Shown: piece by piece, positions 1,303 to 44,000 of the stretch
How the letters are laid out: each line of letters begins with the position of its first letter
How positions within the stretch are numbered: the first letter of the stretch is position 1
Source: Chiloscyllium plagiosum
Lineage: Eukaryota
NCBI RefSeq assembly: GCF_004010195.1
Contig: NC_057759.1
Span: 5,384,154 to 5,448,153 of the forward strand
Direction of reading: 5' to 3'
Length of the DNA: 64,000 bases
Program-made: the position numbers and the translations under genes
Notes under the pieces: model-generated
What the model saw: only the letters and a program-made list of their open reading frames with translations
Told to the model about the DNA's origin: nothing
Databases searched by the model: none

Positions 1303-4300
1303 GTAAGGTGTTACACACATACAAAGAAATACCCAACAGATCAAAGATGTATCTCCAATATAATCTAATATTCTCCATTCAAGACTTGTGCTGTCACTGG
1401 AACTGATTTCTTTACTGCTCTCTGCTTTGTGTTGAGTGTCAGGTTAGCTCAGTTGGCGGGATGGCTGGTTTGGAATGTGGAGCAACATCGACAGCATGGG
1501 TTTGAATCTCTCACTGACTTGAGGTTACCATGAAGGACTGTCCTCCTCCACTCCTTCCCTTGTGTGAGGCATGGTAACCCTCATTTCCCCTTACCCCAGT
1601 TCCTAACTTCCAGCTCAGCACTGTCCCCATGACTTGTCCTACCTGCCTATCTTCTCACTCAAACGCTCTTACTGCCACAAAACATCCACCATGAATTCCC
1701 CTTCCTCATTAAAAATCTCTTTATCTCGGCTTGAATACACTCAGTGAGCCAAGCTCAACATCACTGTGTGGTAAAGAATTCCACAGATTAGCTCCCTCAG
1801 AGAAAATAAATTCCTTCCCATTTCCATCTTCAATGGGCAACCTCCTTTATTCTGAGATAATGCCCCTCTGGTCCTAAACTCTCCTACACAAGGGGAAACA
1901 ATCTCTCTCTCCTCCCTTTTCAGGTCCCTCTAAGAATCTTCAATAAGGTCACCTCTCATTCTTCTGAACTCCAACCAGGACAGACCCGACCTACTCCTAC
2001 CCAACCTCTTCCTCATTAGACAGTCCCTCCATATCCGGGATCAGCTGTGAGAATTTTCTCTGCACTGTCTCGCTGCCCAGACTATATATTCTCAGATATG
2101 GGGGACCCAGAACTGTTCAATGTATTTCACATTGGATAAATATTAGATAAAGTGAGGTGTTGAATTTTGGTAAGGCAAATCAGGGTAGGATTTATACACT
2201 TCGTGGTAGCATTCAGGGGAATATTGCGCAACAATGAGACCGAGGGGTGCAGGTTCATAGTTCCTTGAAAGCGAGTTGCAGGTGGACAGGATAGCGAACC
2301 AGAAGGCATTTGGTACACTGGCCTTCATTGGTGAGTGCACTGTGCACTGAGTATAAGAATTGGGATGTAATGTTTTCGCTGTACAGGACATTAGTCATGT
2401 CCTTTTTTTGGAATACTGGATGAAATGCTGGTGTCCTTGCTATCGGAGAGATACTGTTTAAGTTTGAAAGGTTTTGGAAAATATTTACAAGGATGTTGCC
2501 AGGGTTGGAGGGTTTGAGGAATAGGGAAATGCTGAATAGGCTGGGGCTATTTTCCTGTCTACCATCGACAAGGCACAAGTCAGAAATATGATGGAATATT
2601 CCCCACTTGCCTGGTGCAGCTCCAAGAATACTAGAGAAGCTCAACACCATCCAGGACAAAATAGCTCCCCACTTGATTGGCACCACATCCACAAACATCC
2701 ACTCCCTCCACCATCGATGCTCAATCTTAGCAGTGTACCATTTGCAAAATTCACCAAAGTTCCTCATAAAAAAACTTTCAAACCCATGACCACTTCTATC
2801 TGGAAGGGCAAGGGCAGGAAATACGTGGGAATGCCACCCCCTACAATTTCCCCTCCGATCCACTCATCATCCTGACTTGGAAATATATCAGCTGTTCCTT
2901 CAGCATTGTTGGGTCGACATCTGGAAATTACCTCCCAAAGGTCATGGGGGCCTACCTGAAGCACATTGACTGCAATGGTTCAAGAAGGCAGCTCACTGTT
3001 ATCGTCTCAAGGGGGAAGCTATACACTAAGGTGATTAATGCAGGGCATAGCCAGTCGCAACCACATCCTCTAAGTAGAAAATAAAGTAGTGTCAGTAAGG
3101 GACAGATTCAAATGAGGTTTATTAGGAATTAGTTAAGTGTATTACTGTTAGTTGGAGTTTTCAGTGCTAGTAAGGTTGATCAACCCGTGTTACCTTTTGT
3201 AAGGACAAATAAACTAAAGTTATTATAGCATTGTGCCTCCCACACATCAGCTAAATATTCTCGAGCGTAGTGTCCTGTTTGCCTGCAGTAGTAGCACCAT
3301 GCTGGCTGCCACATGTTCTCCTGCTGTCTCTCCCCGTTGCTGGAATCCTTTGATAATAATTACCTCCTCTTCCTTCATTCCTCAATACTGGATAGAGACT
3401 CGGAAAGGAAGCATATCCCCCTCTTTCCCTGTTTTATTCTTGTCTGGTTTGTGCACTTCTTTCTCCCACATCAGAGACAGTCTCCTCAGAACACACATTT
3501 CATTGTGGGTTGGCTCTGCAAGATTGAAGTTCACACATGTCTTCCGGCTGTCTTCAGTGGCATGTGAAATTAGAGCCCAGCCCACTTCATTGAATCAGCT
3601 TCCAATAACAGACCCCTGTTTATAGACTCACGAGAAGTACACACATAACCGATTAGTAGGCTGTCAGCTGTTCTCTCTTCTTTTGACTGCACTAGTTTAG
3701 CCCATCTACAGGGTCTCCTTTATTGTACCCAATTGATGTGAGAATTGCCACTTCCGTGGTGGCTTGGGTTCCTTCCACTACATCCAGAGAGACTGGGATT
3801 GCAGACTCTGCTGACTGGCTCAAAGACATTTTGATAATTTTTTCCCTCCTCTCTCTCATCTAATCAATGCAAATCCTTTTGTTGTCTGACTACAAGCAAT
3901 ACATATGGATCTGCATATGGCTCAAATTCTGAAATCTTTTTAGCAAATTCCACCAATTGTGTGACTGTAAGTGTGTTCGTGTACGTTAAAGCTGGGGCAT
4001 CGGCGTCCCTGACCGGTCTTTCCATGGTAATCGTGTTCACTGCAGCAGAGGCTAACTCCAGGGTGCTAAACAGGTTGGGTCATCTGGGAAGGTTAGCGGA
4101 GAACCATAATCCTCTGTTCACATGGCATACTGCTGCACATCTTGCCTGAATTCATCTCAGTCTACCTCCTGTCCTTCGCTTTTAACATTTATTGCTGCTT
4201 GTACATCTGCACATTTACGTTTTAACTGACTGACTTCATTCTCAGTGGCTTCTTCAGCTGAAACAACTCACTGGGTGTCCTGTATGCTTTCTCACATTGG

Positions 4301-5847
4301 GTTTGGAATTGCCCCATAATTTCTTTAGTCCTGAGTCGCCACTTTCCTTTGCAACTCTATTTCTTTCCTTGCATTCTCCGTTTCTTTACGAAACTTTTTC
4401 AACTTTACGACTCATAACATTAATAAGAACTGACTTTTTATCGATTTCAACACAGCTAATATTATAATATCAATACAATATAAACTAATAATTAGATCTT
4501 TAATTCTAATTAACTATCTGAACTCTTGAACTTAAATTTGAATGTACAAATACCACTGTGCTAGTTATTGGCCTACATCCACGTGGCAATTTGGTCTCCT
4601 TCTTCTGGTGGTCCAAGGATCATCTTTTCATGGTTGTTCATCTTGAGCTACCACTCCTGAGAGTTGTGTTGTGGTGATTATAATGCCTGAATGTTTTCTT
4701 ATACCTTTGGGAGGGTCTTTGATGCTGACGAATTGATCGATCAGCGCTTGATCACCCTGATCAATTGGGCCTAATCAGATGCTGATGTAATGATGGTGGG
4801 TGGTCCTTGGGCTTCCATTTCTAAGCATTAGGGGCATGGGGGTCAGATAACCTTTCCTAAATGAGGGTGTGAGAAACTGCACACCAGTTAATAAAGTTGA
4901 GGACATTGAGCTTTATTAACTGCTGTCCCTCTGACCTATCACCTTCAGTGATCAGTGCACACATACACCCCCCTTCAGAGTTGTACCCCCTGTTTTATAT
5001 TGTCTTTCAATGTACTTCCCACCAAATTTCATTACTTCACACTTGCCTCTACATCGACCTGGACCTGTCACCAATTTACCCACACCATCAACTTGTCAAT
5101 GTCCTTTTAGAGTTCCACATCGTTCTGATCTTCCCATGTTTTATGTCAATTGCAAACTTGGAATTGGACTCCTACACTGCATGATCCATATCATTAACAT
5201 ATCAAGAGAAGCAAGAGTCCTCAGGCATCCCCCGGAAAGCTCCACTAGAAACTTACTCCATCCCAAAAAATATCCATCGACCGTCGCTCTCTGTTTCCGG
5301 ACACACTTCCACAGTCTTTAGAATTCCACCATTTGCAGGGCAAACTTGGATCCTAAACGCAAGAAGGACGTTCCAGATGACTGGGAAAGAGTTTGGAACA
5401 AGGAGGTCACAGGCTAAAGGAGATGGGGTAGGGCTGAGATGACGAAAAATGTCTTCACCCAGCAAATGGGGAGCCTGTGGGTGTTTTTATCACAGCCAGC
5501 CAAAGAACTTGGAACAGAGGAGGAGGACGAATTCACTGCCCTCAGTGTATGTGCTGGATGCCAGTGCACTGAATAAATTTCAGGAAGAGAAAGGTTTTAA
5601 TCAGTGACGGGTTAAAGGGAGCGCTGACAGGGAAGTGGAGTTGAGGTTGAGATTAAATCAGTTGGGGTCATACTCATCAAATGGGAGAGGTAAATGGTCT
5701 ACTCCTGCCCCTAATTCTTCTGTATCTGGTCCTCCCAGAATTCTCTGCCAATTCAATAGGAAGTGGTTGCCTGCTTTCTCACTGAGCATATTAAAGTTAG
5801 TGACGTTGAGACAAAGTGATCTTTCATTTGACGATTCTGTGTTCCAG

Positions 5848-5991
5848 ATCCCCCTGGAATTTTTGCTTTGCTGGTCAGAGGTTCTGCTGTAGCTGCTGTT
5901 CTCCTCATCACTTTCCTGCTTCTGTTCGCTGTTTGCAAACTCCGTCAGAAAGAGGAAATTCAGGATACCTCCAATTGCCAACCCAGCAGAG
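5848..5991 (+). CDS. Transmembrane exon of the receptor (left copy only)
   Basis: Acceptor attctgtgttccag|AT, donor AG|gtcagt, 144 nt, phase 1-1. Encodes PPGIFALLVRGSAVAAVLLITFLLLFAVCKLRQKEEIQDTSNCQPSR: a hydrophobic helix followed by a basic stop-transfer segment. Confidence 0.82.
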
Positions 5992-6116
5992 GTCAGTTTG
6001 TGGCTGGGCACATGAGAGACAAAGACTGCATTTCCTTGTACAGCTGCTGGTAAAAGTACGGATTTGTGCTTGCTCTGTGTATTCATACTTTTGTGGATGG
6101 CACCAAAACTGGTGGT

Positions 6117-6350
6117 GAAAATGTGTTGCTGGAAAAGCGCAGCAGGTCAGGCAGCATCTAAGGAGCAGGAGAATCGACGTTTCGGGCATGAGCCCTTCAG
6201 GAAGGGCTGAAGAAGAGCTGATTCCTGAAGAAGGGCTCATGCCCGAAACGTTGATTCTCCTGCTCCTCGGATGCTGCCTGACCTGCTGCGCTTTTCCAGC
6301 AACACATTTTCAGCTCTGATCTCCAGCATCTCCAGTCCTCACTTTCTCCT
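6117..6350. mobile_element. Palindromic Penelope-derived mini-element with 15-bp TSD
   Basis: Inverted-repeat structure; TSD accaaaactggtggt at 6102-6116 and 6351-6365. Confidence 0.8.
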
Positions 6351-6457
6351 ACCAAAACTGGTGGTACAGTCAGCAGTGAAGGTTATGTATGTTTACCAAG
6401 AAATCTTGATCAACTTGATCAATGGACAGGTAAATGCGAGATCAAGCATTTTGGTAA

Positions 6458-6776
6458 AGATTAGATTACTTACAGTGTGGAAACAGGCCCTTCGGCCCAA
6501 CAAGTCCACACTGACCCGCCGAAGCGTAACCCACCCAGACCCATTCCCTTACATTTACCCCTTCACCTAACATTACGGGCAATTTAGCAAGGCCAATTTC
6601 ACCTATCCTGCACATTTTTGGATTGTGGGAGGAAACCGGAGCACCCGGAGGAAACCCACGCAGACATGGGGAGAATGTGCAAACTCCACACAGAGAGTCG
6701 CCTGAGGCGGGAATTGAACCCGGGCCTCTGGTGCTGTGAAGCAGCAGTGCTAACCACTGTGCTACCGTGCCGCCCG
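6458..6776 (-). mobile_element. tRNA-derived SINE (HE1/V-SINE type)
   Basis: A/B boxes (tggcacagtgg, ggttcaattccc), core tgtgtggagtttgcacattctcccc and a (TAGAT)n tail. Confidence 0.9.
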
Positions 6777-7157
6777 CTAAAACAAACAAGGGCAAGACTT
6801 ATACGCTGATTAATAGGGGTCTGGGTAGTGTTAACGAACAGAGAGACCTAGAAGTTTAGTTACATAGTTTTGTGAAAGTAACGTCACAAGTAGACAGGAT
6901 GATTAAGGTGATTTTTGGCATGTTTGCTGTCGTCAGTCAGAGCATTGAGTTCAACACCTTTCCACCTCTCCCTGTTTCATTCTGGTGGAGATTCACACTG
7001 GATCTGAAACATTAACACCGTTTTCTCTCTCTCTCTCTCTCTCCACAGATGCTGCCAGGCCTGCTGAGTTTCTCCAGTGCTTTGCATTGGTTTCAGATCT
7101 CCAGAATCCTGCACTATGTTATTTCTTGAACCTTAAAAAATATGTTCTTTGTTTCAG

Positions 7158-7223
7158 ATGACAGTGGTTCCACTTCTGGTGATATTGTGTACTCTGTTGT
7201 TCAAGCGAAGAGGAAAGAAAGAG
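7158..7223 (+). CDS. Cytoplasmic exon with ITIM (IVYSVV), left copy only
   Basis: Acceptor ttctttgtttcag|AT, donor AG|gtaaca, 66 nt, phase 1-1. Encodes DSGSTSGDIVYSVVQAKRKER. Confidence 0.8.
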
Positions 7224-8959
7224 GTAACATGTTTCAAAATAACTTTGCATCACTCTGTCAGGAAGGAAACACAAGATTACATCTTCTAGGAATGGGATCC
7301 ATACAGAACAGAACTAGCCCATTCAGCCCCTCGAGTCAGTTCCAAAATTCAACAAGATTGTGGCTGATCTAATTATCCACTTCGCCATTTTCTCCCCATA
7401 TCCCTCAATGCCCCTTTCTGGTTAAGAATCTCAGCCTTGAATATATTTCATGATCCAGCCTCGACTGTCCTCTGCTGTAAAGAATTCCAAAGATTCACTC
7501 TCCTTAGCAAGAAGAAATTCCTCCTCACGTCTGTCTTCAATGGGTGCCCCCCTTTGTTCTGAGACAATGCCCTTCTGATCCCAGACTCACCCATACAAGG
7601 GGACACAACCTCTCTCTGCATCGCCACCCTGTCAAGTCCGTCGAAGAATCTTAGGTAAGGTTGCCTCTTCTTCTAAACTCCAATCAGGACAGCCCCAACC
7701 TACTCCCTCATCGGATAGGTTCAACCTAGTTCCTCATCAGACAGTCCCCCCCCCATAGCTGGGATCATAACGTCTCTGAACTTCCTCCAATACTCAACTT
7801 ATCTGTCCTCAGATACGGGCCTCCAAAACTTTATCCCAGGTATGGTCTGACTGGTGACTTGTACATTTTTAGCAGAAGCACCCCCACTTTTATACTACAT
7901 TCTCTTCGAAATAAAGGCCACATTCCATTTGCCTTCCCTATACACATTGGTGAGAAGAGGCATGGACGATTTTCTGGGAAAGGCTAAGGAAATCTGAAGC
8001 ATAAAGTGGCTTGGGAGTGCTATTTCAAGATTCTTTTCAGTTTAACAGGCAGTTTCAGTTAGGAAGTCAAATGCAATGTTAACATTCATTTCAAGAGGGC
8101 TAGAATACAAGAGCAGGGATAAACTGCTGATGCCGTATAAGGCTCCGGTCAGACCACAGTTGAATTATGAGCAGTTTTAGGCCCTGTATCTAAGGGAGGA
8201 TGTATTAGCCTGATAGAACTTCCAGAGAAGGTTGACATGAACTGTCCTAGAGATGAAGGGCTTGGCAAATGGATCTGTGCTTGATGAAGTTTAGAAGAAT
8301 GAGGGGTGATCAATTAACTTACAGAATACTGAGAAGCTTGGATAGCGTGCACATGGAGATGTTTCCACGAGTGGGAGAGACAAGGACCCAAGGGCACAAT
8401 CTCAAGTGAAGGGACGACCCTTTAGAACTGAGATGAGGACGACTTTCTTCAGCCAAAAGGTGGTCAATCTGTGAAACTCACTGTCACGGAAGGCTGTGGA
8501 GACCCATTCGTTAAGTGTCTTTAGGACAGAGATGGACAGATTTTGATTAATAAGAGGATCAATGGTTATCAGGACAAAGCAGGAGAATTGGATTGAGAAT
8601 GATATTATCCATGGCAAAATGGCAGAGGAGACCCGATGTGCCTAATTCTGCTCCTATATCTAATGATCTGGTCTCACCTGCAGAATTCAAACACTAGTTT
8701 TTTTTTGTGATTCATGGATGAGGACTGTCAAATCCCTCGGACTCATAGCTTTCTGCAGTCTTTCTCTATTTAAATAATCTTCAACTCCTCTGTTCTTCCT
8801 GCATCACCTTATATTTCCACGTTATATTCAAAGTTTCTTGCCCATTCACTTAACCCCATCTTCGTGGCACACACACCACTTGCATTGCCAACTATTTTTG
8901 CATTACCTGCAAAGTAAGCGATCATCTTACTAACATGATGCTAGTATTGGACTGAGGTG

Positions 8960-9148
8960 GATAAAGTTAAAAATCTCATAACATCAGAGTATAATCCAAT
9001 AGGTTTATTTGAAAGTAATGTCTTTCGGTGCCACTGTTCTTTCATCAGGTAGCTAGTTCCCCAAAGGAGCAGTGCTTGGGAAACATGTATTTCCAAATAA
9101 ACCTATTGGACTATAACCTGGTGCTGTGAGATTTTGAAACTTTGTCTT
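8960..9148. mobile_element. Palindromic fragment of a second Penelope-like family (mirror ~37428-37630)
   Basis: Inverted repeat resembling the PLE end at 25520 (ttaaaaat..acaacaccaggttatagtccaa) with a degenerate CTGATGAA...CCGAAAG core. Confidence 0.6.
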
Positions 9149-9155
9149 ACTAACA

Positions 9156-9468
9156 GGCACGGTGGCACAATGGTTAGCACTGCTGCCTCACAGCGCCAGA
9201 GACCCGGGTTCAATTCCCACCTCAGGCGACTCTCTGTATGGAGTTTGCACATTCTCCCCGTGTCTGCATGGGTTTCCTCCAGGTGCTCCAGTTTCCTCCC
9301 ACAGACTAAAAATGTGCAGGTTAGGTGAATTGGCCAAGCTAAATTACCCTAGTGTTAGGTGAAGGGGTAAATGTAGGGGAATGGGTCTGGGTGGGTTGCG
9401 CTTCGGTGGGTTGGTATGGACTTGTTGGGCAGAAGGGCCTGTTTCCACACTGTAATGTAATCTAATCT
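9156..9468 (+). mobile_element. HE1/V-SINE type SINE (mirror ~37110-37418, minus strand)
   Basis: Same head, core and tail. Confidence 0.9.
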
Positions 9469-9824
9469 TAAAAAAAACTGAGTGTGAAACAGTGATAACG
9501 TATCTCAGAACGAAAATTCATCTGGTTCACTGGTCTCCTTCAGGGAGAGAAATCTCCTTCCTTACCTAGTCTGACCCTGCATGTGACTCCAGACTCTCAG
9601 TGATGTGGTTGGCGCCTAACTTCCCTCGGGAACAATTAGGGATGGGAGCAGTAAATGGTAGGTCCAGTCCGTTTGTGGTTTACTGCACATAGAAGCAGAA
9701 TCAGGTCATTCAGCCCATCGAGTCTGCTCTGCTGTTCAATGTGATATGGGATTCCTTACTGAACTTCACCATTCCCTTAATCTGTGCTGTATTCTTTCAG
9801 TGAGATAATATAGCCCGACATTGG

Positions 9825-10116
9825 GCAACATGGTGGTTGGCAGTGTTTGGCCTCACAGTGCCAGGGACCCAGGTTCAATTCCTGTCTTGGGCAACTGTCT
9901 GTGTGGAGTTTGCACATTCTCCCCATGTCTGTGTGGGTTTACTCTGGATGCTGCGGTTTCCTCCCACAGTCCAAAGATTGGCCATGCTAAATTACCCGTA
10001 GTGTTAGGTGCAGGGGTAAATGTAGGGGAATGGGTCTGGGTGGGTTGCTCTTCAGAGGGTCTTTGTGGACTTGTTGGGCTGAAGGGTCTGTTTACACAGT
10101 GTAGGTAACTAAATCT
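9825..10116 (+). mobile_element. HE1/V-SINE type SINE (mirror ~36470-36762, minus strand)
   Basis: Same core and tail, more diverged. Confidence 0.85.
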
Positions 10117-10727
10117 AAAAAAAAACTCCACCTAACACAACAGCTTTGTCAAGGATACTTAGACTCGAATGTATAATTCAGATGGTGTGGGTATGTTGGC
10201 ACTGACTGAAACCAACTTCTTTCTGCACAGCTTGACAGAAATGTATCCCCTCGTGCCATTCCTACCAGATCCCTGTGCACCCCATTTCTATCCAAATTCC
10301 CTTTTCCATTGAACCTACCTCCAACACATTTCCAGGCAGCGCATTCTACACCCTAACTGGGTGAAAAGATTTATTCCTTGCGTTTCTTTGCCAACTTGCT
10401 TTGTTTCCATATCAGTTTAAATCTTTAAGCTGCCACCACTACCACATCCCCACCACCATTCTCGTTTTTGTTCTTTTTGTGATCAGGAACAGCTTCTCCC
10501 TATTAATTCTGTCCAGCCCCTGCTAACTATTTTGAAAACTTCCCTCATTCTCTGCTTCTCCGCTCAAAGGGAGTACAGTCCCTGACTTCTTTCAGTATCG
10601 TCATCGTTGGAGTTTCTCCTCCCTGGAACCTGGTTCTTGGAAATCTATCACACAAGCCAGCTTTCCATCGACTGACTCCACTTATACTTCTCGCTGCATC
10701 GGGAAAGCGGTCAACATATTCATACAG

Positions 10728-10948
10728 GTAAAAACAATGACTGCAGATGCTGGAAACCAGATTCTGGATTAGTGGTGCTAGAAGAGCACAGCAGTTCAGG
10801 CAGCATCCAAGGAGCTTCGAAATCGACGTTTCAGGCAAAACCCCTTCATCAGCATCATCCTGATGAAGGGCTTTTGCCCGAAACGTCGATTTCGAAGCTC
10901 CTTGGATGCTGCCTGAACTGCTGTGCTCTTCCAGCACCACTAATCCAG
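10728..10948. mobile_element. Palindromic Penelope-derived mini-element with 15-bp TSD; absent from the right arm
   Basis: TSD aacatattcatacag at 10713-10727 and 10949-10963; empty site at ~35870-35884. Confidence 0.88.
10857..10890 (+). ncRNA. Minimal hammerhead-ribozyme-like motif
   Basis: AUC-CUGAUGA-A-GGGC-UUUU-GCCC-GAAA-CG-UC-GAU: conserved core, 4-bp stem II, loopless palindromic stem III and short stem I. Confidence 0.6.
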
Positions 10949-11571
10949 AACATATTCATACAGCCCTCCCAACCTGGTTATACTCTATTACCTCTGAAGA
11001 AGATAGAAGTGTTTGAATATACATACCAACAGAAAAAGAATACCTTCTTCCCCACTGTTACCATATTTTTGAACGGACTTCTCAAATATTAATGTTTATC
11101 CCCCTCTCTGCACCTTCTTTGCAGCTTTAACACTGTATTCTGCAGTCTGTTCTGCTGCCCTGGTGCACTTTGTATGCGATCTGCCTGTAGAGCATGCAAA
11201 ACAAACCTTTTCACTGTTTCTGTGCATCTGACAACAATAAATCAAATAAAAACTACTTCGGCACTCTCTCACTCACTGAGATACATTCATATCTTTTCTA
11301 TAAAGTGGCAAACACAACTGCATGCCATATTCTAGCATGCCATATTCATGTCCAGCAAGCACCTTGTACAAATTCAACATCACCTCGTGCTCTTGGATGC
11401 TGTGTGCTTTAGTAACCATGCCCTCCACCTGTCTTGCCACCCACATATACCGCCCAGCTGCCTCTGCTCGTGCACCTATCTTCTGAACTGACACACAATG
11501 CCAAGGGAGACGGAAAATGCAATCCCTAGCCCTACTGTGCACTAAAATAGTTTTCTGGTTGTTTCTTCCAG

Positions 11572-11596
11572 GTCATATCATGGCAAGAGAGAATCA
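11572..11596 (+). CDS. Tail micro-exon, left copy, 25 nt (1 nt shorter than the right copy; frameshift)
   Basis: ttcttccag|gtcatatcatggcaagagagaatca|gtaagt versus gtcatatcatggcaagaagagaatca in the right copy. Confidence 0.6.
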
Positions 11597-11934
11597 GTAA
11601 GTTCTTGTTATTTCATAGACCTTTACAGGACAAGGAGGGGTTCTTATCAGCAAAGATCTGAAAGCAACACTCTTACTTTTCAGCGCTTTCACCCTTATTC
11701 CCGGAGGCAACAGCAATACAGTTGTACATCTAAATACTTCTTTGAATAACGAGGGTTTCTGCGTCTCCCACTTTCAAAGGCAGAGAGTTCCAGGTAGCCC
11801 ACCATCCACTGGTCGAACAATTTTCTCCGCAAATCCTTTTTTACCTTTGAATCTGTGACCCCTGCTTACTGATTCCATTACCCATTGGAACTGTGCCTTA
11901 CATGTATGAGACTGTCACAGTCTAATACACCTGT

Positions 11935-12130
11935 GAGGAGAAAGTGAGGTCTGGAGATCAGAGATGGAAAGTGTTGCTGGAAAAGCGCAGCAGGTCAGGC
12001 AGCATCTAGAGAACAGGAGAATCGACGTTTCGGGCATTAGCTGAAGAAGGGCTAATGCCCGAAACGTCGATTCTCCTGTTCCCTAGATGCTGCCTGACCT
12101 GCTGCGCTTTTCCAGCAACACATTTCCATC
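11935..12130. mobile_element. Palindromic Penelope-derived mini-element with 14-bp TSD; absent from the right arm
   Basis: TSD tctaatacacctgt at 11921-11934 and 12131-12144; empty site at ~34903-34916. Confidence 0.88.
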
Positions 12131-12679
12131 TCTAATACACCTGTATCAGTTCACCCCTCAACCTTCTCTGCTCCAAACAGAACAATCCGAGCTTATCCAA
12201 GCTCTCCTCATCACTGAAATGTGACACCCAGGCAATATTGCCATGAATCAGCTGTTCACCACCTCCACTGCAAACACATCCTTCCTATAGTGATCTAGCT
12301 GTAGCCCGACCAAAGTCCTGTCCAGCTCAGATATCACCTACCCGCTCTTATAATCTATGTTCCGACTGATAAAGGCAAGTGTCCTGAAGGCCTTCTTAAC
12401 TATTAGCATGTTCTGCCACCTTCAGGGATCTATGGACTAGCATCCTGGGTCTCTCAGTGCTTATGGTATCCTGCAACTTAGCATCTATATCTTAGACACG
12501 TTATCCCTCTCCAAGTCCAATAAAATGATCACACTTAGGAGCGGTAATAGGCCATTCTACCAGCAAAGTCTGCTCTGCTGAATGCAGCTGATTTAATAAT
12601 CCTCAACTTCACTTTCATCCCATAACCCTCAATTCCTCTTCCAGATTAAAAATCTCAGCCTTGAATATACTTCACGACC

Positions 12680-12850
12680 GAGGAGCAGGAAAATCGACAT
12701 TTCGGGCAAATGCCCTTCATCAGGAATTGAAGGGCTTTTGCCTGAAAAGTTGATATTCCTGCTCCTCGGATGCTGCCTGGCCTGCTGTGCTTTTCCAGCA
12801 CCACTCTGACTTAAACTCTGGTTTCCAGCATCTGCAGTACTCACTTTTGC
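12680..12850. mobile_element. Older palindromic Penelope-derived insert shared by both arms (mirror ~34200-34370)
   Basis: Same family as 10728-10948, degraded, present in both arms. Confidence 0.7.
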
Positions 12851-13578
12851 ATACTTCACAACCGAACCAAGACAGCCTTCTGCAGTAAAGAAGTCCACAG
12901 ACTCTCTCTCCTTGAAAAGAAGAAATTCCTCCTCGCCTCAGTCTTTAATAGGAGACAAACTCCCTTCCCCCTCCCTCGGCCTGCCACATTCTGAAATGAT
13001 ACCCCTCTGGTCCCAGACTCTGCTACACATGGAGAAACAAACTCTCTCTGCATCTTCCCTCAAATCAAGTCATCGGAACATCTTCAATAAGGTCGCCCAT
13101 CTTTCTTCCCAACACCAAATGAGGATAGGCTAGACTTATGCAATCTCTTCCTAAACACACAGTCCCTCCATTCCCAGGATCAGCTTAGTGAACCTTCTTG
13201 GGACTGCCTCCAATGCCTAATCTCCCTCTCCTTCGATACGGAGGCCCAAAACTGATCACTGTATCACAGATGTGGTCTATCTAGTGTCTTGTATAGTCTA
13301 AGCAAAATCTCCTGGCTTTTATATTCCATTCCCTTTGAAATAAAGGCTATCATGACCTGCTTAACTTGGCCGCTAGCTTCAGTTTTGGGATTCACGGACC
13401 AGGACTCCCAAACCCTTAGGTCCACAGCTTTCTGCAGTCTTTCACCATTTAAGTAATAAGTATTGACATCAATTTAATAGATATGGTTCTGTGTCATACA
13501 TTAGTTAATCATTAAAAGTGGATCTGAGCAAATGAACCATGTTATGAACACTCAACTAGCTGTCTGATCTAGCAAATG

Positions 13579-14988
13579 GAGGTCCTGGCTGAATGGTATT
13601 GATGCTAGACTATAAATCTGGATTCCTAGGTGATATTCCAGTGACCTAGGTGCAAATCCTGCCATGGCGACAGGGTGAATTTGAGTTCAATAAAAGTCTT
13701 GGATTTAAAGTTTAATGAGGACCATTGACAGGAGAGAGCACTGTCTGGGTACTAATGTCCTTTCGGGAAGAAAATCTGTCATCTTTACCCAGTCTGGCGT
13801 ACATATAACTCCAGACCACACAACAATGTGGCTGACTCTTAACTGACCTATTGGTAATTAGGGATGGGTGATCAATGTTAGCCCTGCCAGTCACACCTGC
13901 ATCCTACAAGTGTATATTTTTTTTTTAAATCATGACCTTGACTGAAGGAAATCTGTACCCAGTCTGGCTTTCCTGAGTCATATTCTGTAATGCTTTGCAT
14001 TCCACTGCAGACAAAAGACCTGTCAACAGAATACCTATCATAATGTGTAAACTTACTGGATGGCTGCAATGCAAGAGTGGACACACAGCAAGGAGTAGCC
14101 ATTAGGGCTCTAAGATCATGGCTTGAGAAATATAAACAAGAGTGGACAGTGACTATTTGATCTTTGCAGCTATTGCAAGCTTTATGCAACTAACACTTTT
14201 TACAGACCAATCCATGTTGCAAAGTGTTCTGTAGACAGCTGAGATCAGGACATTTGTAGCAACTAGGCCCAATCATCACCAAAGAGGTCCTGGCTGAATG
14301 GTATTGATGCTAGACTATAAATCTGGATTCCTAGGTGATGTTCCAGTGACCTAGGTGCAAATCCTGCCATGGCGATGGGGTGAATTTGAGTTCAATAAAA
14401 GTCTTGGATTTAAAGTCTAATGAGGACCATTGACAGGAGAGAGCACCGTCTGGGTACTAATGTCCTTTCGAGAAGAAAATCTGTCATCTTTACCCAGTCT
14501 GGCGTACATATAACTCCAGACCACACAACAATGTGGCTCACTCTTAACTGACCTATTGGCAATTAGGGATGGGTGATCAATGTTAGCCCTGCCAGTCACA
14601 CCTGCATCCTACAAGTGTATATTTTTTTTAAAAATCATGACCTTGATGGAAGGAACTCTGTACCTAGTCTGGCTTTCCTGAGTCATATTCTGTAATGCTT
14701 TGCATTCCACTGCAGACAAAAGACCTGTCAACAGAATACCTATCATAATGTGTAAACTTACTGGATGGCTGCAATGCAAGAGTGGACACTCTGCAAGGAG
14801 TAGCCATTAGGGCTCTAAGATCATGGCTTGAGAAATATAAACAAGAGTGGACAGTAACTATTTGATCTTTCCAGCTACTGCAAGCTTTATGCAACTAACA
14901 CTTTTTACAGACCAATCCATGTTGCAAAGTGTTCTGTAGACAGCTGAGATCAGGACATTTGTAGCAACTAGGCCCAATCATCACCAAA
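13579..14988 (+). repeat. Direct tandem duplication, 2 x 705 bp
   Basis: gaggtcctggctgaatggtattg starts at both 13579 and 14284; the right arm has one copy (~32765-33468). Confidence 0.92.
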
Positions 14989-15269
14989 GTGTCATTTGCT
15001 GTCCCTCAATGCAAGGATGTCATCTACTCAGGATAATACATTTTTGCTGTTGCTCTATATGCAACTGAACTGGCAGATTCCCTGTATAGGTAGTGGGATC
15101 TGGTGCAGATTATGCTTCCTTTTCTTTCTCTATTGCTGCTCTGACTCATCATTAAGGTGCAGCTGGGCAGACAAGTTGCCACTTTTTAAAAATTGACAGT
15201 AAGGTCCATGATCCTGAACTTTAAGTAACTTCATGGAAAGCTTCAGTGTCTTGGAAGACTGGGACCACT

Positions 15270-17860: not shown

Positions 17861-17889
17861 ACATGCCCCTGGATTCTCGGGCCCCGTCA

Positions 17890-20040: not shown

Positions 20041-20043
20041 AAT

Positions 20044-28062: not shown

Positions 28063-28119
28063 AATAAGGCAGGGCAAGTGACTGAAATGTCAGTGGGGGA
28101 GAACTTAGGGCCAAGTGAC

Positions 28120-28412: not shown

Positions 28413-28419
28413 TCTCGAA

Positions 28420-31047: not shown

Positions 31048-31176
31048 CTAGCACCTCCGAATGTTCTGGTAGACAGATGATCCATTACCTCCCTGCCTTC
31101 CAGCACGCACATCTTGGTCCCTTGTCCTTTCAAGGTGCATTAACGACGCATAAGTTACGTGACTGTCAACCTCTCT
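31048..31176 (-). CDS. Terminal exon with ITIM (VTYASL) and distal tyrosine motif (SVYQNI), right copy
   Basis: Acceptor tctgttcccttgcag|AGA; reads REVDSHVTYASLMHLERTRDQDVRAGRQGGNGSSVYQNIRRC-TAG. Internal differences from the left copy are synonymous in this frame. Confidence 0.82.
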   Translation of the reverse strand, partial: REVDSHVTYASLMHLERTRDQDVRAGRQGGNGSSVYQNIRRC

Positions 31177-35241: not shown

Positions 35242-35267
35242 TGATTCTCTTCTTGCCATGATATGAC
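35242..35267 (-). CDS. 26-nt cytoplasmic-tail micro-exon (right copy, in frame)
   Basis: Acceptor ggttgtttcttccag|GT, donor TCA|gtaagt. Phase 1 to phase 0, exactly what is needed to join the phase-1 upstream exons to the phase-0 terminal exon. Encodes HIMARRES. Confidence 0.65.
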
Positions 35268-38200
35268 CTGGAAGAAACAACCAGAAAACAATTGTAGTAC
35301 ACAGTAGGGCTAGGGATTGCATTTTCCACCTCCCTTGGCATTGTGTGTCAGTTCAGAAGATAGGTGCACGAGCAGAGGCGGCTGGGCAGTATATGTGGGT
35401 GGCAAGACAGGTGGAGGGCATGGTTACTAAAGCACACAGCATCCAAGAGCAGCAGGTGATGTTGAATTTGTACAAGGTGCTTGCTGGACATCAGCTAGAA
35501 TATGGCATGCAGTTGTGTTTGCCACATTATAGAAAATATATGAATGTATCTCAGTGAGTGAGAGAGCGCCAAAGCAGTTTTGATTTGATTTATTGTCGTC
35601 AGATGCACAGAAACAGTGAAAAGGTTTGTTTTGCATGCTCTACAGGCAGATCATCGCATACAAAGTGCACCAGGGCAGCAGAACAGACTGCAGAATACAG
35701 TGTTAAAGCTGTAAAGAAGGTGCAGAGAAGGAGATAAACATTAATATTTGAGAAGTCCGTTCAAAAGTATGGTAACAGCGGGGAAGAAGATATTCTTTTT
35801 CTGTTGGTATGTATATTCAAACACTTCTATCTTCTTCAGAGGTAATAGAGCATAACCAGGTTGGGAGGGCTGTATGAATATGTTGTCCACTTTCCCGATG
35901 CAGCAAGAAGTATGAGTGGAGTCAGTCAATGGAAAACTGGCTTGTGTGATAGATTTCCAAGAACCAGGTTCCAGGGAGGAGAAACTCCAACGATGAGGAT
36001 ACTGAAAGAAGTCAGGGACTGTACTCCCTTAGAGTGGAGAAGCAGAGAATGAGGGAGGTTTTCAAAATAGTTAGCAGGGGCAGGACAGAATTAATAGGGA
36101 GAAGCTGTTCCTGAACAAAAACGAGAATGGTGGTGGGGGTGTGGTGGTGGTGGCGGCTTGTAGATTTAAACTGATATGGAAACAAAGCAAGTTGGCAAAG
36201 AAACGTAAGGAATAAATCTTTTCACCCAGTTAGGGTGTAGAATGCACTGCCTGGAAATGTGTTGGAGGTAGATTCAATGGAGAAGGGTATTTGGACAGAA
36301 ATGGATTGCACAGGTATCTGGTAGGATTGGCATGAGGGGATACATTTCTGTCAAGCTGTGCAGAAAGAAGTTGGTTTCAGTCAGTGCCAACATACCCACA
36401 CCATCTGAATTAAACATTTGATTCGAAGTATCCTTGACAAAGCCGTTGTGTTAGGTGGAGATTTTTTTTTAGATTTAGTTACCTACACTGTGTAAACAGG
36501 CCCTTCAGCCCAACAAGTTCACAATGACCCTCCGAAGAGCAACCCACCCAGACCCATTCCCCTACACCTAACACTACGGGTAATTTAGCATGGCCAATAA
36601 CCTGCACATCTTTGGACTGTGGGAGGAAATCGCAGCACCCAGAGTAAACCCACACAGACACGGGAGAATGTGCAAACTCCACACAGACAGTTGCCCAAGG
36701 CAGGAATTGAACCTGGGTACCTGGCGCTGTGAAGCCAACCACTGCTAATCACCATGTTGCCCAATGTCGGGCTATATTATCTCATTGAAAGAATACAGCA
36801 CAGATTAAGGGAATTGTGAAGTTCAGTGAGGAATCCCATATCACATTGAACAGCAGAGCAGACAAGATGGGCTGAATGACCTATTTCAGCTTCTATGTGC
36901 AGCAAACCACCAACAGACTGGACCTACCATTTACTGCTCCCATCCCTAATTGTTCCCGAGGAAAGTTAGGCACCAACCATATCGCTGAGAGTCTGGAGTC
37001 ACATGCAGGATCAGACTAGGTAAGGAAGGAGATTTCTCTCCCTGAAGGAGACCAGTGAACCAGATGAATTTTCGTTCTGAGATACGTTATCACTGCTTCA
37101 CACTTTTTTTTAGATTAGATTACTTACAGTGTGGAAACAGGCCATTTGGCCCAAGTCCACACCGACCCACCAAAGCGCAACCCACCCAGACCCATTCCCC
37201 TACATTTACCCCTTCACCTAACACTAGGGCAATTTAACATAGCCAATTCACCTAACCTGCACATTTTTAGACTGTGGGAGGAAACCGGAGCATCTGGAGG
37301 AAACCCATGCAGACACGGGGAGAATGTGCAAACTCCACAGAGAGTCGCCTGAGGCGGTAATTGAACCCGGTTCTCTGGCGCTGAGAGGCAGCAGTGCTAA
37401 CCACTGTGCCAACGTGCCTGTTAGTAAGACAAAGTTAAAAATCTCACAGTACCAGGTTATAGTTCAACAGGTTTATTTGGAAATACATGTTTCCCAAGCA
37501 CTGCTCCTTTGTCAGGTAGCTAGAGGGGAGCTAGCTACCTGATGAAAGAACAGTGCTCCGAAAGACATTACTTTCAAATTATCCGATTGGATTATACTCT
37601 GATGTTATGAGATTTTTAACTTTGTCCACTTCAGTCCAACACTAGCATCATGTTAGTAAGATGATCGCTTACTTTGCAGGTGATGCAAAAATAGTTGGCA
37701 ATGCAAGTTGTGCGTGTGCCACGAAGATAGGGTTAAGTGAATGGGCAAGAAACCTTGAATATAACATGTAGAAATGTAAGGTGATGCAGGAAGAACAGAG
37801 GAGTTGAAGATTATTTAAATAGAGAAAGACTGCAGAAAGCTATGAGTCTGAGGGATTTTACAGTCCTCATCCATGAATCTCAAAAAAAACTAGTGTTTGA
37901 ATTCTGCAGGTGAGACCAGATCATTAGATATAGGAACAGAATTAGTCCCATTGGGTCTCCTCTGCCATTTTGCCATGGATAATATCATTCTCAATCCAAT
38001 CCTCCTGCTTTGTCCTGATAACCATTGATCCCCTTATTAATCAAAATCTGTCTTAAAGACACTTAATGACTGGGTCTCCACAGCCTTCCGTGACAGTGAG
38101 TTTCACAGATTGACCACCTTTTGGCTGAAGAAAGTAGTCCTCATCTCAGTTCTATAGGGTTGTCCCTTCACTTGAGATTGTGCCCTTGGGTCCTTGTTTC

Positions 38201-38579
38201 TGGGGGATGCCTGAGGACACTTGCTTCTCTTGATATGTTAATGATATGGATCATGCAGTGCAGGAGTCCAATTCCAAGTTTGCAATTGACATAAAACATG
38301 GGAAGAGCATTAACTGTGAAGAGAATGATGTGGAACTCTAAAAAGACATTGACAAGTTGATGGGAGTGGGTAAATTGGTGACAGGTCCAGTTCGATGTAG
38401 AGGCAAGTGTGAAGTAATGAAATTTGGTGAGTAGTACATTGAAAGACAGTATAAAACAGGGTACAACTCTGAAGGGGGGTGTATGAGCTGGGGGGGGTAT
38501 ATATGTGCACTGATCACTGAAGGCGATAGGTCAGAGGGACAGCAGTTAATAAAGCTCAGTATCCTCAACTTTATTAATT

Positions 38580-41050
38580 GAGGTGCAGTTTCTCACACCC
38601 TCATTTAGGAAAGGTTACCTGAACTCCATGCCCCTAATGCTAAGAAATGGAGTCCGAGGACCACCCACCATCATTACATCAGCGTCTGATTAGGCCCAAT
38701 TGATCAGGGTGATCAAGTACTGATCGATCAATTTGTCAGCATCAAAGACCCTCCCAAAGGTATAAGAAACATTCAGGTATTATAATCACCGCAACACAAC
38801 TCTCAGGAGTGGTAGCTCAAGATGAACAACCATGAAAAGATGATGATCCTTGGACCACCAGAAGGAGACCAAATTGCCACGTGGATGAAGACCAATATCT
38901 AGCACAGTGGTATTTGTACATTCAAATTTAAGTTTAAGAGTTCAGATAGTTAATTAGAATTAGAGGGTTAATTATTAGTTTATAATGTATTGATATTATA
39001 ATATTAGCTGTGTTGAAATAGATTTAAAAAGTCATTTCTTATTAATGTTTTGAGTCGACCTGCAGTTCTTTGCTGAATATAAGAGTCAAAATACACTGTG
39101 TGGCAGACACAAGAAATTGGTGACTTTGGTGGGACTCAATAAGAAGTGACTTTGTTGTTGTAAAATTGAACCCCATGGAACCTAATACTCCCTCAAATTT
39201 TGCCTGTGTCCAAATTAAGAAGACAAGTCCCACCTGATGGTCGGGAATCCAAGTAAACTGAAGGAATAGAAAGGTCTACATTGGACTGTTCTTTAAAGGA
39301 TAAATCCAGTAGGTATGTGTGTGTGCGCGCGCGCGAGAGAGAGAGATCCATCGTGGGACAGGTAAGGTAAAACAGCGGAAGTTGGTACAGACCCAATGTG
39401 ATTAAGATTGGAACACAGCGAAAGCTTAGTTTAATTTTGAATGGCAAAGAAATGTACCTGAGAAAACGACTGTCTGATTTGGAAAAAAAGTTAAGACTTG
39501 TATATCAGTAAGGAAAGGTGGCCGATATGGGCATGATTTTGCAGTAATGATGAAATGGGACCAGGATCCCTAAGACAACAATATTGAGACAATTGGAGGA
39601 AAATTCTCGGAAAGTGGTCTTTCAAGCTTGAAAACCCTACAACAATGATATGCTGTATCAGACAATTGCTAGGAAGTGAGCAGGAATTGAAAAAAGTTTA
39701 GAAGTGTGGCAGTGGCAAAGCACAGCCAGTCAGGCAGCATCCGAGGAGCAGGAGAATCAGAAATGAAGAGTTTATGTTCAAAAGGTCAACTCTCCTGCTC
39801 AGATGCTGCTGAGTGGCTGTGTTTTTCCAGCGTAACACTTTTAGACTCTGATCTCCAGCATCTGCAAACCTCACTCTCGCCTTGGAATCGAAAAGGTTTC
39901 GTAAAGAATCAGATAATGCAAGGAAAGAAATAGAGTTGCAAAGGAAAGTGGCGACTCAGGACTAAAGAAATCATGGGGCAATTCCAAACCCAATGTGAGA
40001 AGGCATACAGGACACCCAGTGAGTTGTTTCAGCTGAAGAAGCCACTGAGAATGAAGTCAGTCAGTTAAAAAGTAAATGTGCAGATCTACAAGCAGCAATA
40101 GATGTTAAAGGCGAAGAACAGGAGGTAGACTGAGATGAGTTCAGGCAAGATGTGCAGCAGTATGCCATGTGAACAGAGGATTATGGTTCTCCGCTAACCT
40201 TCCCAGAAGACCCAACCTGTTTAGCCTCTACTGCAGTGAACTCGATTACCATGGAAAGACCGGTCAGGGATGCCGATGCCCCAGCGTTAACATACACGAA
40301 CACACTTAGTCACACAATTGGTGGAATTTGCTAAAACGATTTCAGAATTTGAGCCATCTGCAGATCCATATGTATTGCTTGTAGTCAGACAACAAAAGGA
40401 TTTGCATTGATTAGATGAGAGAGAGGAGGGAAAAAATTATCAAAATGTCTTTGAGCCAGTCAGCAGAGTCTGCAATCCCAGTCTCTCTGGATGTAGTGGA
40501 AGGAACCCAAGCCACCACGGAAGTGGCAATTCTCACATCAATTGGGTACAATAAAGGAGACCCTGTAGATGGGCTAAACTAGTGCAGTCAAATGAAGAGA
40601 GAACAGCTGACAGCCTACTAATCGGTTATGTGTGTACTTCTCGTGAGTCTATAAACAGGGGTCTGTTATTGGAAGCTGATTCAATGAAGTGGGCTGGGCT
40701 GTAATTTCACGTGCCACTGAAGACAGCCGGAAGACATGTGTGAACTTCAATCCTGCAGAGCCAACCCACAATGAGATGTGTGTTCTGAGGAGACTGTCTC
40801 TGATGTGGGAGAAAGAAGTGCATAAACCAGACAAGAATAAAACGGGGAAAGAGAGGAAAATGCTTCCTTTCAGAGTCTCAATCCAGTATTGAGGAATGAA
40901 GGAAGAGGAGGTAATTATTATCAAAGGATCCCAGCAACGGGGAGAGATAGTACGTGTGGCAGCCAGCGTGGTGCTACTACTGTGGGCAAACAGGACACTA
41001 CGCTCGAGAATATTTAGCTGATGTGTGGGAGGCACAATGTTATAATAACT
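38580..41050 (+). mobile_element. Old LTR-retroelement remnant with a tRNA-Arg-like PBS (mirror ~3220-4890, which lacks the PBS segment)
   Basis: TGGTGACTTTGGTGGGAC at 39118-39135, 16/18 to the complement of the vertebrate tRNA-Arg(UCU) 3' end, followed by purine-rich decayed gag-like sequence. Boundaries approximate. Confidence 0.5.
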
Positions 41051-44000
41051 TTAGTTTATTTGTCCTTACAAAAGGTAACACCGGTTGATCAACCTTACTA
41101 GCACTGAAAACTCCAACTAACAGTAATACACTTAACTAATTCCTAACAAACCTAACTTGAACTCTGTCCCTTACTGTCACTACTTTATTTTCTACTTACA
41201 GGATGTGGTTGCGACTGGCTGTGCCCTGCATTAATCACCCTAGTTTCCAGTTTCCCCCTTGAGAAGATAACAGTGAGCTGCCTTCTTGAACCATTGCAGT
41301 CAATGTGCTTCAGGTAGGCCCCCATGACCTTTGGGAGGTAATTTCCAGATGTCGACCCAACAATGCTGAAGGAACAGCTGATATATTTCCAAGTCAGGAT
41401 GGTGAGTGAATCGGAGGGGAAATTGTAGGGGGTGGCATTCCCACGTATTTCCTGCCCTTGCCCTTCCAGATGGAAGCGATCATGGGTTTGAAAGTTTTTT
41501 TATGAGGAACTTTGGTGAATTTTGCAAATGGTACACACTGCTGAGATTGAGCATCGATGGTGGAGGGAGTGGATGTTTGTGGATGTGGTGCCAATCAAGC
41601 GGGAGCTATTTTGTCCTGGATGGTGTTGAGCTTCTCTAGTGTTCTTGGAGCTGCACCAGGCAAGTGGGGAATATTCCATCACATTTCTGACTTGTGCCTT
41701 GTCGATGGTAGACAGGATTTTGGGGGTGTGGCTGAGGGTGGAGGGGGTATTTCTGGAGATGCGTTACTCGCTGCAGTATTCCTAGCCTCTGGCCTGCTCT
41801 TGTAGCTACAGTATTGATATGGCAAGTCCAGTTCAGTTTCTGGTCAATGGGAATTCTGGTTCTGGGGAGACTCAAATAGTAATATCAAATTGTCAAGGAG
41901 CTGATGGTTAGATTCTCTCTCAATTGTTACCCCCAGAATGTTGATGGTGAGGGGATTCAGCGATGGTAACACTATTGAACATCAAGAGGCGATACTTGGA
42001 ATCTTTCTTATTAGAGATATGTGTGGTGCAAATGTTACTTGTCACTTGTCAGCACAAGCCTAGGTATTATCAAGACCTTGCTACATTTTGACGCAGACTG
42101 CTTCAGTATCTGAGGCATGGGGAATGGAACTGAAGAGTAGAGTCATAGAAATGAACAGCATGGAAACAGACCCTTCAGTCCAACTCAACTATGCCGACCA
42201 GATGCCCTAAATGAATCTGATCCTATTTGGCAGCATTTGGATCATATCCCTGCAAACCTTTCCTGTTCATGTACCGATCCAGGTGCTTTCTAAATGTTGT
42301 AAATTAACCTGTCCCTACAACTCCCCTCTGACAGATCATTCCGTACACACACCATCCTCTGTGTGAAAAAGACATGCCACTTAGGTCCCTTTTAAATCTG
42401 TCTTGTCTCACCTAAAATCTATTCCCTCCAGTTTTGGACTTGCCTACCATGGGAGGAAATACCTTAGTCATTCACCCTAATTCACCCTATCCATGCCCCT
42501 CAAGTTTTTATAAACTTCCACATTTTACTCACCTTTAATCTTAATCGATCCAGGGAAAATAGCCCCAGCCTATTCAGCATTTCCCTATTCCTCAAACCCT
42601 CCAACCCTGGCAACATCCTTGTAAATCTTTTCCAAAACCTTTCAAACTTAAACAGTATCTCTCCTAATAGCAAGGACACCAGAATTTCATCCAGTATTCC
42701 AAAAAAAGGACATAACTAATATGCTGTACAGTGAGAACATTACATCCCAATTCTTATACTCAGTGCACTAACCAATGAAGGCCAGTGTACCAAATGCCTT
42801 CTGGTTCGCTATCCTGTCCACCTGCAACTCGCTTTCAAGGAACTATGAACCTGCACCCCTCGGTCTCATTGTTGCGCAATATTCCCCTGAATGCTACCAC
42901 TAAGTGTATAAATCCTACCCTGATTTGCCTTACCAAAATTCAACACCTCACTTTATCTAATATTTATCCAATGTGAAATACATTGAACACTTCTGGGTCC
43001 CCATATCTGAGAATATATAGTCTGGGCAGCGAGACAGTGCAGAGAAAATTCACACAGCTGATCCCGGATATGGAGGGACTGTCTGACGAGGAAGAGGTTG
43101 GGTAGGAGTAGGTCGGGTCTGTCCTGGTTGGAGTTCAGAAGAATGAGAGGTGACCTTATTGAAGATTCTTAGAGGGACCTGAAAAGGGAGGAGAGAGAGA
43201 TTGTTTCCCCTTGTGTAGGAGAGTTTAGGACCAGAGGGGCATTGTCTCAGAATAAAGGAGGTTACCCATTGGAGATGGAAATGGGAAGGAATTTATTTTC
43301 TCTGAGGGACTAATCGGTGGAATTCTTTACCGCACAGGGGTGTTGAGCCTGGCTCACTGATTATATTCAAGCCGAGATAAAGAGATTTTTAATGAGGAAG
43401 GGGAATTCATGGTGGATGTTTTGTGGCAGTAAGAGCGTTTGAGTGGGATGGAGGGGAGGGGGGGGGTGTAATGACACAAATGTAGAGTTGAGGGTGATTA
43501 GATCAGAAGTGTTCCCATTTAACATCAGAGCAAATTCTCTAGGCTGAATACCACAGTCCCACACCAACATCTTTTGGTCTTCGCATTCTGAAAACAGTTA
43601 AGTTACATGAACAGTGCAGATATAAAACCATTGCACAGAGTTGAGCCAAATTTCACAGTAAAAGGTCTCTCAAAGGCAAATAATCTCCAGTTAGAAACTC
43701 GTCTCGGGATCAGAGCAGAGGAGAAAGTTGGTGATCTACCAATTACAGAACACTCCTCCTGAAATTAACCCTCATCCCCAGCAGCTAAATCTGGAGTAAA
43801 AGTGGGACTATTCCAACAGCAATAAAAGATGATGTGAAGATGTCGGTCAACCTGAGAGACCTATTATGACAAATTGTCATTGACTGGTATACATTCAGTA
43901 TGGCAACCGGAGAGCCAATACATCCCACATCTTCCATTGCCAATGTCAATTTGCTCCACCTAGAGTTGGAACTCTTGTAAAGTGTCCTGATCAGTTTCAA

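Follow-up and report, generated by a model that had tools for sequence, protein, structure and literature searches.

A partially duplicated FCRL-like receptor gene with one ectodomain and two tails in Chiloscyllium plagiosum

The 64,000-nt stretch of the Chiloscyllium plagiosum genome analyzed here, hereafter the window (G000:C50:5384154-5448153, where C50 is the contig label), carries an FCRL-like receptor gene whose 3' half is present twice and whose three immunoglobulin (Ig) exons, Ig1 to Ig3, are present once. In the assembly this single Ig1-Ig2-Ig3 head is joined to a tail without a transmembrane (TM) exon, and in another sample, X1, the same head side runs into the tail that retains one. 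We favor, with confidence that is about even, real recombination between the 96%-identical halves as the origin of the two arrangements, and the variation in how head and tail are joined is likely to be ordinary reshuffling in a decaying gene cluster, not a working receptor pair.

Extent and exon content of the duplicated half

Self-BLAST recovered a chain of minus-strand matches running from 1653-2555/43448-42554 through 15935-16891/32037-31081 at 90 to 96% identity, which defines a left arm of 15.2 kb (1653-16891, forward strand) and a right arm of 12.4 kb (43448-31081, reverse strand). The left arm starts in the intron after Ig3 and contains no Ig exon; the right arm, its sister copy, is joined in the assembly to Ig3, Ig2, and Ig1. 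Nine aligned blocks contain 414 substitutions in 10,482 columns (3.95% divergence), and changes in CpG context are the commonest between the arms (88 of 386 arm substitutions, a count inflated by scoring a CpG in either arm). The arms share 25 identical runs of at least 65 nt, the longest being 234 nt, and they are each other's closest relatives in a tree of seven copies (bootstrap 100/99). Each arm also has insertions or deletions of its own. The left arm alone has a 3,137-nt segment with the TM exon and the first cytoplasmic exon, cyt1 (5239-8375), and a 705-nt tandem duplication, 97% identical, within an intron (13579-14989), both on the forward strand and found by self-BLAST. The right arm alone has intron segments of 832 nt (39058-39889) and 836 nt (41718-42553) on the reverse strand; right-type contigs from two further sequencing runs, X3 and X4, lie over the first or its edge, and a contig of X1 spans an edge of the second with no differences. 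The original prediction had given arms of ~15 and ~12 kb with independent insertions and deletions, and this dot-plot-type check agrees with it.

All exons have AG/GT ends. On the left arm (forward strand), the TM exon is 144 nt long with phase 1-1 (5848-5991) and has a glycine-to-arginine change in the N-terminal part of its hydrophobic span. It is followed, by exon joining, by the 66-nt cyt1 exon with the immunoreceptor tyrosine-based inhibitory motif (ITIM) IVYSVV (7158-7223) and by a small tail exon of 25 nt (11572-11596), 1 nt short of the 26 nt found in six of the seven family copies examined. The frame is shifted there and the tail ends ...GHIMARENQGRLTVT and a stop, so that it would terminate 84 residues after the start of the TM exon with a single ITIM. 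The left last exon is cut by the contig end (16796-16893) and encodes VTYASL in its DNA, out of frame with the standard acceptor; an in-frame rescue through an AG 2 nt downstream, which would need a weak GAG acceptor, is possible on paper. On the reverse strand, the right copy consists of Ig1 (54183-54458, 276 nt), Ig2 (50130-50411, 282 nt, 6 nt shorter than in the paralogues), and Ig3 (44122-44388, 267 nt), all open and matched by Pfam Ig families, followed by a 26-nt tail exon placed in frame by exon joining (35242-35267) and a last exon that runs to its stop with the ITIM VTYASL and the motif SVYQNI (31048-31176). Joined by coordinates, these five exons form one open frame of 325 residues with no hydrophobic span (maximum KD19 of 1.03 versus 2.66). 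The exon inventory that the original prediction had assigned to each arm, TM and first ITIM with a frameshifted end on the left, neither of these but an intact end and upstream Ig exons on the right, is therefore correct.

Neither arm has everything that a receptor gene of this family contains. Upstream of Ig1, homology to intron 2 of the paralogues ends at ~57153 (57140-57160, reverse strand), ~0.45 kb before the second leader exon would be reached, and both leader exons are missing; none was found for the right copy in the 100 kb examined upstream of Ig1 or among genome-wide matches (40 candidates scored for each exon). Because it has no leader exons, the right locus as assembled is most likely a recent pseudogene, which may still be transcribed. 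The dN/dS ratios against the nearest paralogue (Ig1, 0.93; Ig2, 0.90; Ig3, 0.57; TM, 0.70) do not decide on function. An Ig profile run against the 5,154 open frames of a 424-kb region matched only known minus-strand exons at E values of 0.011 or better and gave no plus-strand match below 0.35, so that the upstream Ig exons envisaged for the left copy did not appear and no second Ig set was found in that region.

The alignments also give the order of events. Homology of the left arm to a full paralogue begins ~0.7 kb past Ig3, and because the copy begins inside the intron after Ig3, it is a duplicate of the 3' half only and never had an ectodomain. The loss of Ig4 is common to both arms (approximately 4870-4885 on the forward strand and near 38588 on the right, with ~11 kb of the paralogue skipped), and the comparison indicates that it preceded the copying. 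After copying, one half evidently lost the TM exon and the first ITIM in frame, at a deletion junction placed by the arm alignment at 38197-38201 (reverse strand), and the other evidently lost 1 nt in its tail exon. The original gene would have been an inhibitory receptor like the paralogues, with a head, a TM region, and three tyrosine motifs, from which Ig4 was lost before the partial 3' duplication and the two separate losses.

How the arms are oriented is less firm than that they exist. The left arm stops at a run of 500 N (16894-17393, unstranded), on whose far side neither its last exon nor the 3' flank continues, and the two sides of this join, which lies between the arms, do not continue each other. 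Further 500-N joins lie 26 kb upstream of the window and at +75,488; from their recurring round length we take such gaps to be joins of unknown size. The left arm thus sits on a scaffold of ~42 kb flanked on both sides by 500-N joins, beyond neither of which its sequence is resumed, and of 29 family exons in 424 kb, 25 are on the minus strand and the remaining 4, all on this scaffold, are on the plus strand. Because the left scaffold is bounded by two joins and carries the sole plus-strand family exons, the inverted orientation of the arms is unproven, and the order of the histone genes on either side of the upstream join leaves it undecided. The caution attached to the original prediction, that orientation might be an artifact of the gap, was well placed: of its tail-to-tail inverted duplication, the duplication stands, with 3.95% divergence and both arm types present in two runs, and the inversion does not have the same footing. 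A second inverted duplication adjoins the left arm (window positions -79374 to -51549 versus -25597 to 1583, about 5,304,800-5,332,600 versus 5,358,600-5,385,700 on G000:C50), with 5.6% substitutions, an open histone H4 in both copies, and H2A nearby.

Arm types in other samples and rival explanations

Twenty-four runs were listed, 12 of which hold at least half of the words of 3100-12000, and four (X1, X3, X4, and X21) were compared over 37450-46290 with a 92% cutoff, a comparison made on the right arm and the Ig3 side. X3 and X4, which are of whole-genome size, have right-only contigs at 38976-39288 (1 difference) and 39316-39687 and also left-type alleles or contigs, so both arm types occur in two of two whole-genome runs. 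X1 has 172 million letters of contigs, yet its depth at the locus is 7 to 19, and its ratio of repeat depth to locus depth (~3,300, versus ~51,000 in X3 and ~26,000 in X4) shows that it is enriched for the locus, so that it resembles RNA or targeted DNA. X21, a single-cell RNA run of which ~2% was used, had no reads on Ig3 and is too shallow to count; the listed runs holding 3100-12000 include no RNA run and give no evidence either way.

X1 changes arm type in the middle of a contig. Forty of 246 differences were listed, 39 of which concern X1, and 35 of these 39 are left-arm alleles; no right-type X1 contig covers these 35 sites. A 1,413-nt contig over 39915-41302 has 35 other letters and 22 gap bases, net +22, exactly as predicted by a switch within 40985-41039, while a pure left type predicts 49, 23, and +21. 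The contig is right-type from 41040 upward, on the Ig3 side, and left-type from 40984 downward, and the arm type changes within a 55-nt stretch that is identical in the two arms (3229-3283 on the forward strand in the left arm and 40985-41039 on the reverse strand in the right). X1 also agrees with the right type at 41147, crosses the edge of the right-only segment at 41717 with no differences, matches Ig3 and its flanking introns with 0 to 3 differences, and has a depth of 0 at 38630-38924. The simplest reading is one molecule that leads from the Ig3 side into the TM-bearing arm. A separate X1 contig (43914-44391) has its start no more than 3 nt from the Ig3 acceptor, carries seven unmatched letters there, and runs into the next intron; it could be spliced Ig2-Ig3 RNA with a retained intron (stop after ...ITVQSE) or a variant near a contig end.

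A crossover within the 55-nt stretch would connect the two arrangements and give two haplotypes. With arms that are genuinely inverted, one crossover would reverse the intervening 38 kb; with the left scaffold in the wrong orientation, it would take place between direct repeats and delete the TM-less tail. We consider recombination between the arms likelier than a mis-join, because the switch stretch is short (55 nt) in a region where 25 identical runs of at least 65 nt were available. Several points weigh against recombination all the same. The switch is seen in one contig of one run, and such contigs drop minor variants and may be mosaics. X1 is listed only as "DNA?", and the evidence comes from other samples, not from reads of the assembled animal, which makes a mis-join possible. 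The left-type equivalent of 38197-39057 is only 90% alike and may fall under the 92% cutoff, so the zero depth in X1 is weak evidence; the left-arm frameshift, the arginine codon, and the junction at 1653 are known from the assembled animal alone. Ig1 to Ig3, TM, and cyt1 are all open despite 7 to 13% divergence from the paralogues, a pattern that suggests recent or ongoing function, and the 3,722-N gap that lies immediately 5' of window base 1 could hide exons, as could the join at +75,488.

The alternative that fares best, although we think it unlikely, is that the X1 arrangement is the sole real one, with head and TM tail joined everywhere, the TM-less half an orphan, the assembly mis-joined in the repeat, and the left scaffold perhaps mis-oriented. 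It offers the simplest history, in which a headless copy loses its TM exon at no cost, and it suits the position of the left arm between two noncontinuing joins and the small number of plus-strand exons; flipping the left scaffold would make the adjoining inverted duplication direct as well. It requires, however, a reciprocal pair of errors, both at a stretch of 55 nt, short enough for ordinary reads to cross, although longer identical runs exist, and both arms are gap-free contigs across the switch point.

We find it rather improbable that the assembly alone is real and the X1 contig an artifact, in which case the locus would hold two dead pieces, a TM fragment lacking a head and a TM-less gene lacking a leader. 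Both arms fall short of a whole gene, no database protein matches the TM or Ig2 at 100%, and contigs of this kind collapse variants, with X3 and X4 mixing alleles within single contigs, all of which would fit. Yet the diagnostic substitutions in X1 form two clean blocks, 35 of left type followed by 14 of right type, the reciprocal types are missing from X1, and an artifact would require that one molecule break off and another begin within the same 55 nt. We judge it very unlikely that the arms represent a single locus with two divergent alleles, each retained by the assembler: the left arm does lie on a small scaffold, X1 has only one continuous version, and all three animals could be heterozygous, but the arms differ by 4% and by kilobase-size indels, their 5' flanks are entirely different (a histone-bearing block versus Ig3), both types occur in each whole-genome run, and in X4 the shared arm contig has a depth of 43 versus 12 to 21 in single-copy flank, a rough measure only. 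The haplotype alternative raised with the original prediction finds little support, and the data support a real duplication, by all appearances within a family turning over by birth and death, as that prediction had proposed; many broken copies lie on the contig.

Receptor pairing and the arginine in the left transmembrane exon

The term paired receptors denotes activating and inhibitory receptors whose ectodomains are alike; in the Xenopus XFL family, an NxxR TM with a short tail marks the activating members and an uncharged TM with tyrosine motifs the inhibitory ones, as set out in excerpts of PMC2413239. Here one Ig1-Ig3 set serves two tails, though gaps could hide exons; the left TM has an arginine without NxxR and its tail keeps IVYSVV, and the right copy has no TM at all. 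The right copy likewise differs from a secreted FcR-like isoform, with a leader and Ig domains but no TM, in having no leader exon upstream of Ig1. The two copies do occupy separate loci in one genome, both types being present in X3 and X4 with different flanks. Both tails appear to descend from an inhibitory type. Two complementary receptor variants, as originally proposed, are therefore not supported, since there is one ectodomain, the left arm having no Ig exon and the right no leader, and the proposed paired-receptor system does not hold up with both tails inhibitory-derived and a single Ig1-Ig3 set. The contrast of membrane-bound with TM-less holds as an exon difference and not as two separate receptors, X1 pointing to one head with either tail.

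The arginine occurs in the left TM only (one of seven genomic copies) and reflects a CpG transition, GTC GGA to GTC AGA; it lies 19 residues before the first cytoplasmic lysine, near the arginine position of three relatives. These (P0022, P0024, and P0029, of 31 sequences examined) have a different TM with an N-terminal arginine and a short, motif-free tail, a TM type that found no match in the 802 kb examined. Least credible of all is that two working genes, one membrane-bound and one soluble, are forming a paired system: the TM-less frame is open and in phase, a TM-less XFL cDNA with a tyrosine-motif tail is on record (excerpt of PMC2413239), and an arginine in a tail stripped of two of three motifs recalls receptors turning activating (excerpt of PMC2213150), but there is a single ectodomain and no leader, the arginine is the commonest kind of change here, stands outside NxxR, and leaves one ITIM in place, and the activating-type TM of the three relatives is missing from the region examined.

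To a bolder proposal we give little credence: a structural polymorphism might switch one FCRL-like ectodomain between a TM-less two-motif tail and an arginine-bearing membrane tail without the two distal motifs, the membrane allele being an inhibitory receptor that turns activating or dual and is expressed in animals that keep the leader. If true, it would provide a testable case in which an inhibitory receptor becomes activating and tails are switched, in the most ancient lineage that has antibodies.

Family identity, genomic setting, and known systems

The family exon layout is leader, leader 2, Ig1 to Ig3, an optional Ig4, TM, cyt1, a 26-nt exon, and a last exon. Genome matches comprise at least 7 TM, 9 last-exon, 10 Ig2, and 8 Ig3 copies, nearly all on C50, and four of nine Ig1 copies are frameshifted; no fully intact family gene was seen in the regions examined. 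Searching with Ig2 found 11 relatives, carpet-shark RefSeq models named FCRL3, -4, or -5 or Fc gamma receptor (I)-like. The best PDB match of the family is human FCRL5 (P0008, E value of 1.1e-45, five stretches), which heads the matches of both P0008 and P0009; FcR and FCRL chains fill most of these lists, with CEA fourth and second, respectively. The Ig domains appear most like those of FCR/FCRL, in the same order and collinear with the first three FCRL5 domains. Six of seven genomic TMs are uncharged, and IVYSVV, VTYASL, and SVYQNI sit on separate exons, as expected of the inhibitory class. In the C50 paralogues the signal peptide, absent from the window copy, is split over two exons (31 coding nt plus a mini-exon). 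A 21-bp second leader exon is given as an FCR/FCRL hallmark in a passage of PMC10003336, and only a fraction of Xenopus XFL genes have it according to the excerpted PMC2413239. Because the second leader exon of the shark paralogues is 30 nt long, we provisionally term the family FCRL-like and do not file it under FCRL proper. Synteny with human 1q21-23 was assessed with five markers: a zeta/gamma TM and VANGL are on C12, UFC1 is unplaced, an MPZ tail and PEX19 were not found, and none is on C50. The C12 match is a single TM exon of the zeta/FcR-gamma family with a conserved aspartate (G000:C12:49769721-49769807), either zeta or gamma.

Exon matches for the named models P0009 and P0010 lie at G000:C50:5125795-5236190, where P0009 takes Ig1 and Ig2 from one copy and Ig3 through the tail from the next, across 500-N joins, the nearer Ig1 being frameshifted. 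Two more TM-tail fragments from this family lie tail to tail (G000:C50:6380362-6385653 versus 6428715-6421460), 91 to 92% identical and separated by a 500-N join, and two near-identical orphan Ig3 exons (L021-L024; window +80150 and +103594, minus strand) lie downstream within a direct duplication. Orphan leader exon pairs occur on unplaced contigs (G000:C99556:321-2206 and G000:C92772:112-1868), and in these pairs AC precedes the GT of the second exon, a feature absent from the other copies.

Beside the arms, 49 frames on the upstream side of the left arm were scanned with Pfam; they matched histones and a long interspersed nuclear element endonuclease and no receptor domain. Directly at the 16894-17393 gap begins a retrovirus-like remnant (17394-20640, reverse strand) with a 271-N gap within it and CpG-rich repeats at 20380-20640; its frames, which have no Pfam match, are presumably gag- and protease-like, and no second copy was found in the regions examined. 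Insertion of an endogenous retrovirus into the left last exon was considered and rejected, since neither the remainder of the exon nor the sequence 3' of it turned up past the element. Long retroelement frames at 26116-28129 (reverse strand), with no Pfam match at 1e-3, we take to be of Penelope/GIY-YIG type. At 62178-62285 (reverse strand) is a 108-nt open exon-like stretch with AG/GT ends and a phase unfit for Ig1, the segment around it being repeated three times nearby at 71 to 73%, and 62739-64000 is a degenerate satellite-like array with units of ~47 to 49 nt.

The duplication itself is ordinary cluster turnover. One wider point is that gene models taken from this assembly in such clusters may be wrong or allele-specific, since in another sample the head is linked with the alternative tail. 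A second is that sharks have an expanded group of FCRL-like genes, while according to the excerpted portions of a paper of 2014 and a review of 2026 FCRL is missing in cartilaginous fish (PMC4016189, PMC13337447). FCRL names for sharks already appear in automatic annotation and in one single-cell paper, whose excerpt reports fcgr1a-like, fcrl3, and fcrl5 in bamboo shark B cells (PMC11372145), and the excerpted part of PMC6795676 does no more than list a shark IgM Fc receptor reported in 1988. A literature search, thin on subscription journals, found no description of this locus or family.

Among known systems, the closest are RefSeq carpet-shark models (P0006-P0018; Chiloscyllium, Hemiscyllium, Stegostoma, and Rhincodon), which resemble the window copy in exon chain and tail motifs, with 67 to 78% identity in Ig2 and 71 to 74% in the TM exon; none of the listed proteins matches its TM or Ig2 at 100%. 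These models are whole proteins with a leader and often Ig4, whereas the window copy has neither and has two alternative tails. Human FCRL5 and the FCR/FCRL group share the split leader and the ITIM tail on small exons and differ in the length of the second leader exon. Xenopus XFL, as far as the excerpts of PMC2413239 describe it, is likewise an expanded FcR-like cluster with domain shuffling and fragments, and it includes an uncharged TM with a tyrosine-motif tail (the TM2 class) as well as the TM-less cDNA; its pairs differ in having a distinct NxxR TM and short tail on one exon, which was not found in the shark regions examined. Activating KIR and Ly49 receptors arose from inhibitory forms, according to the excerpted PMC2213150, by gain of a charged TM residue and loss of tyrosine motifs on an inhibitory background, a likeness to the left arm, although the shark copy is leaderless and shows one CpG change plus a frameshift. 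The human FCGR locus, in the portions of PMC6563257 and PMC11659932 at hand, exhibits the same process of nonallelic recombination: FCGR2/3 modules are 94% identical, and recombination joins one ectodomain to the tail of another, as in FCGR2C, and varies copy number. In the human case the two parents are whole genes, as is the chimera; the shark duplicate is a headless half.

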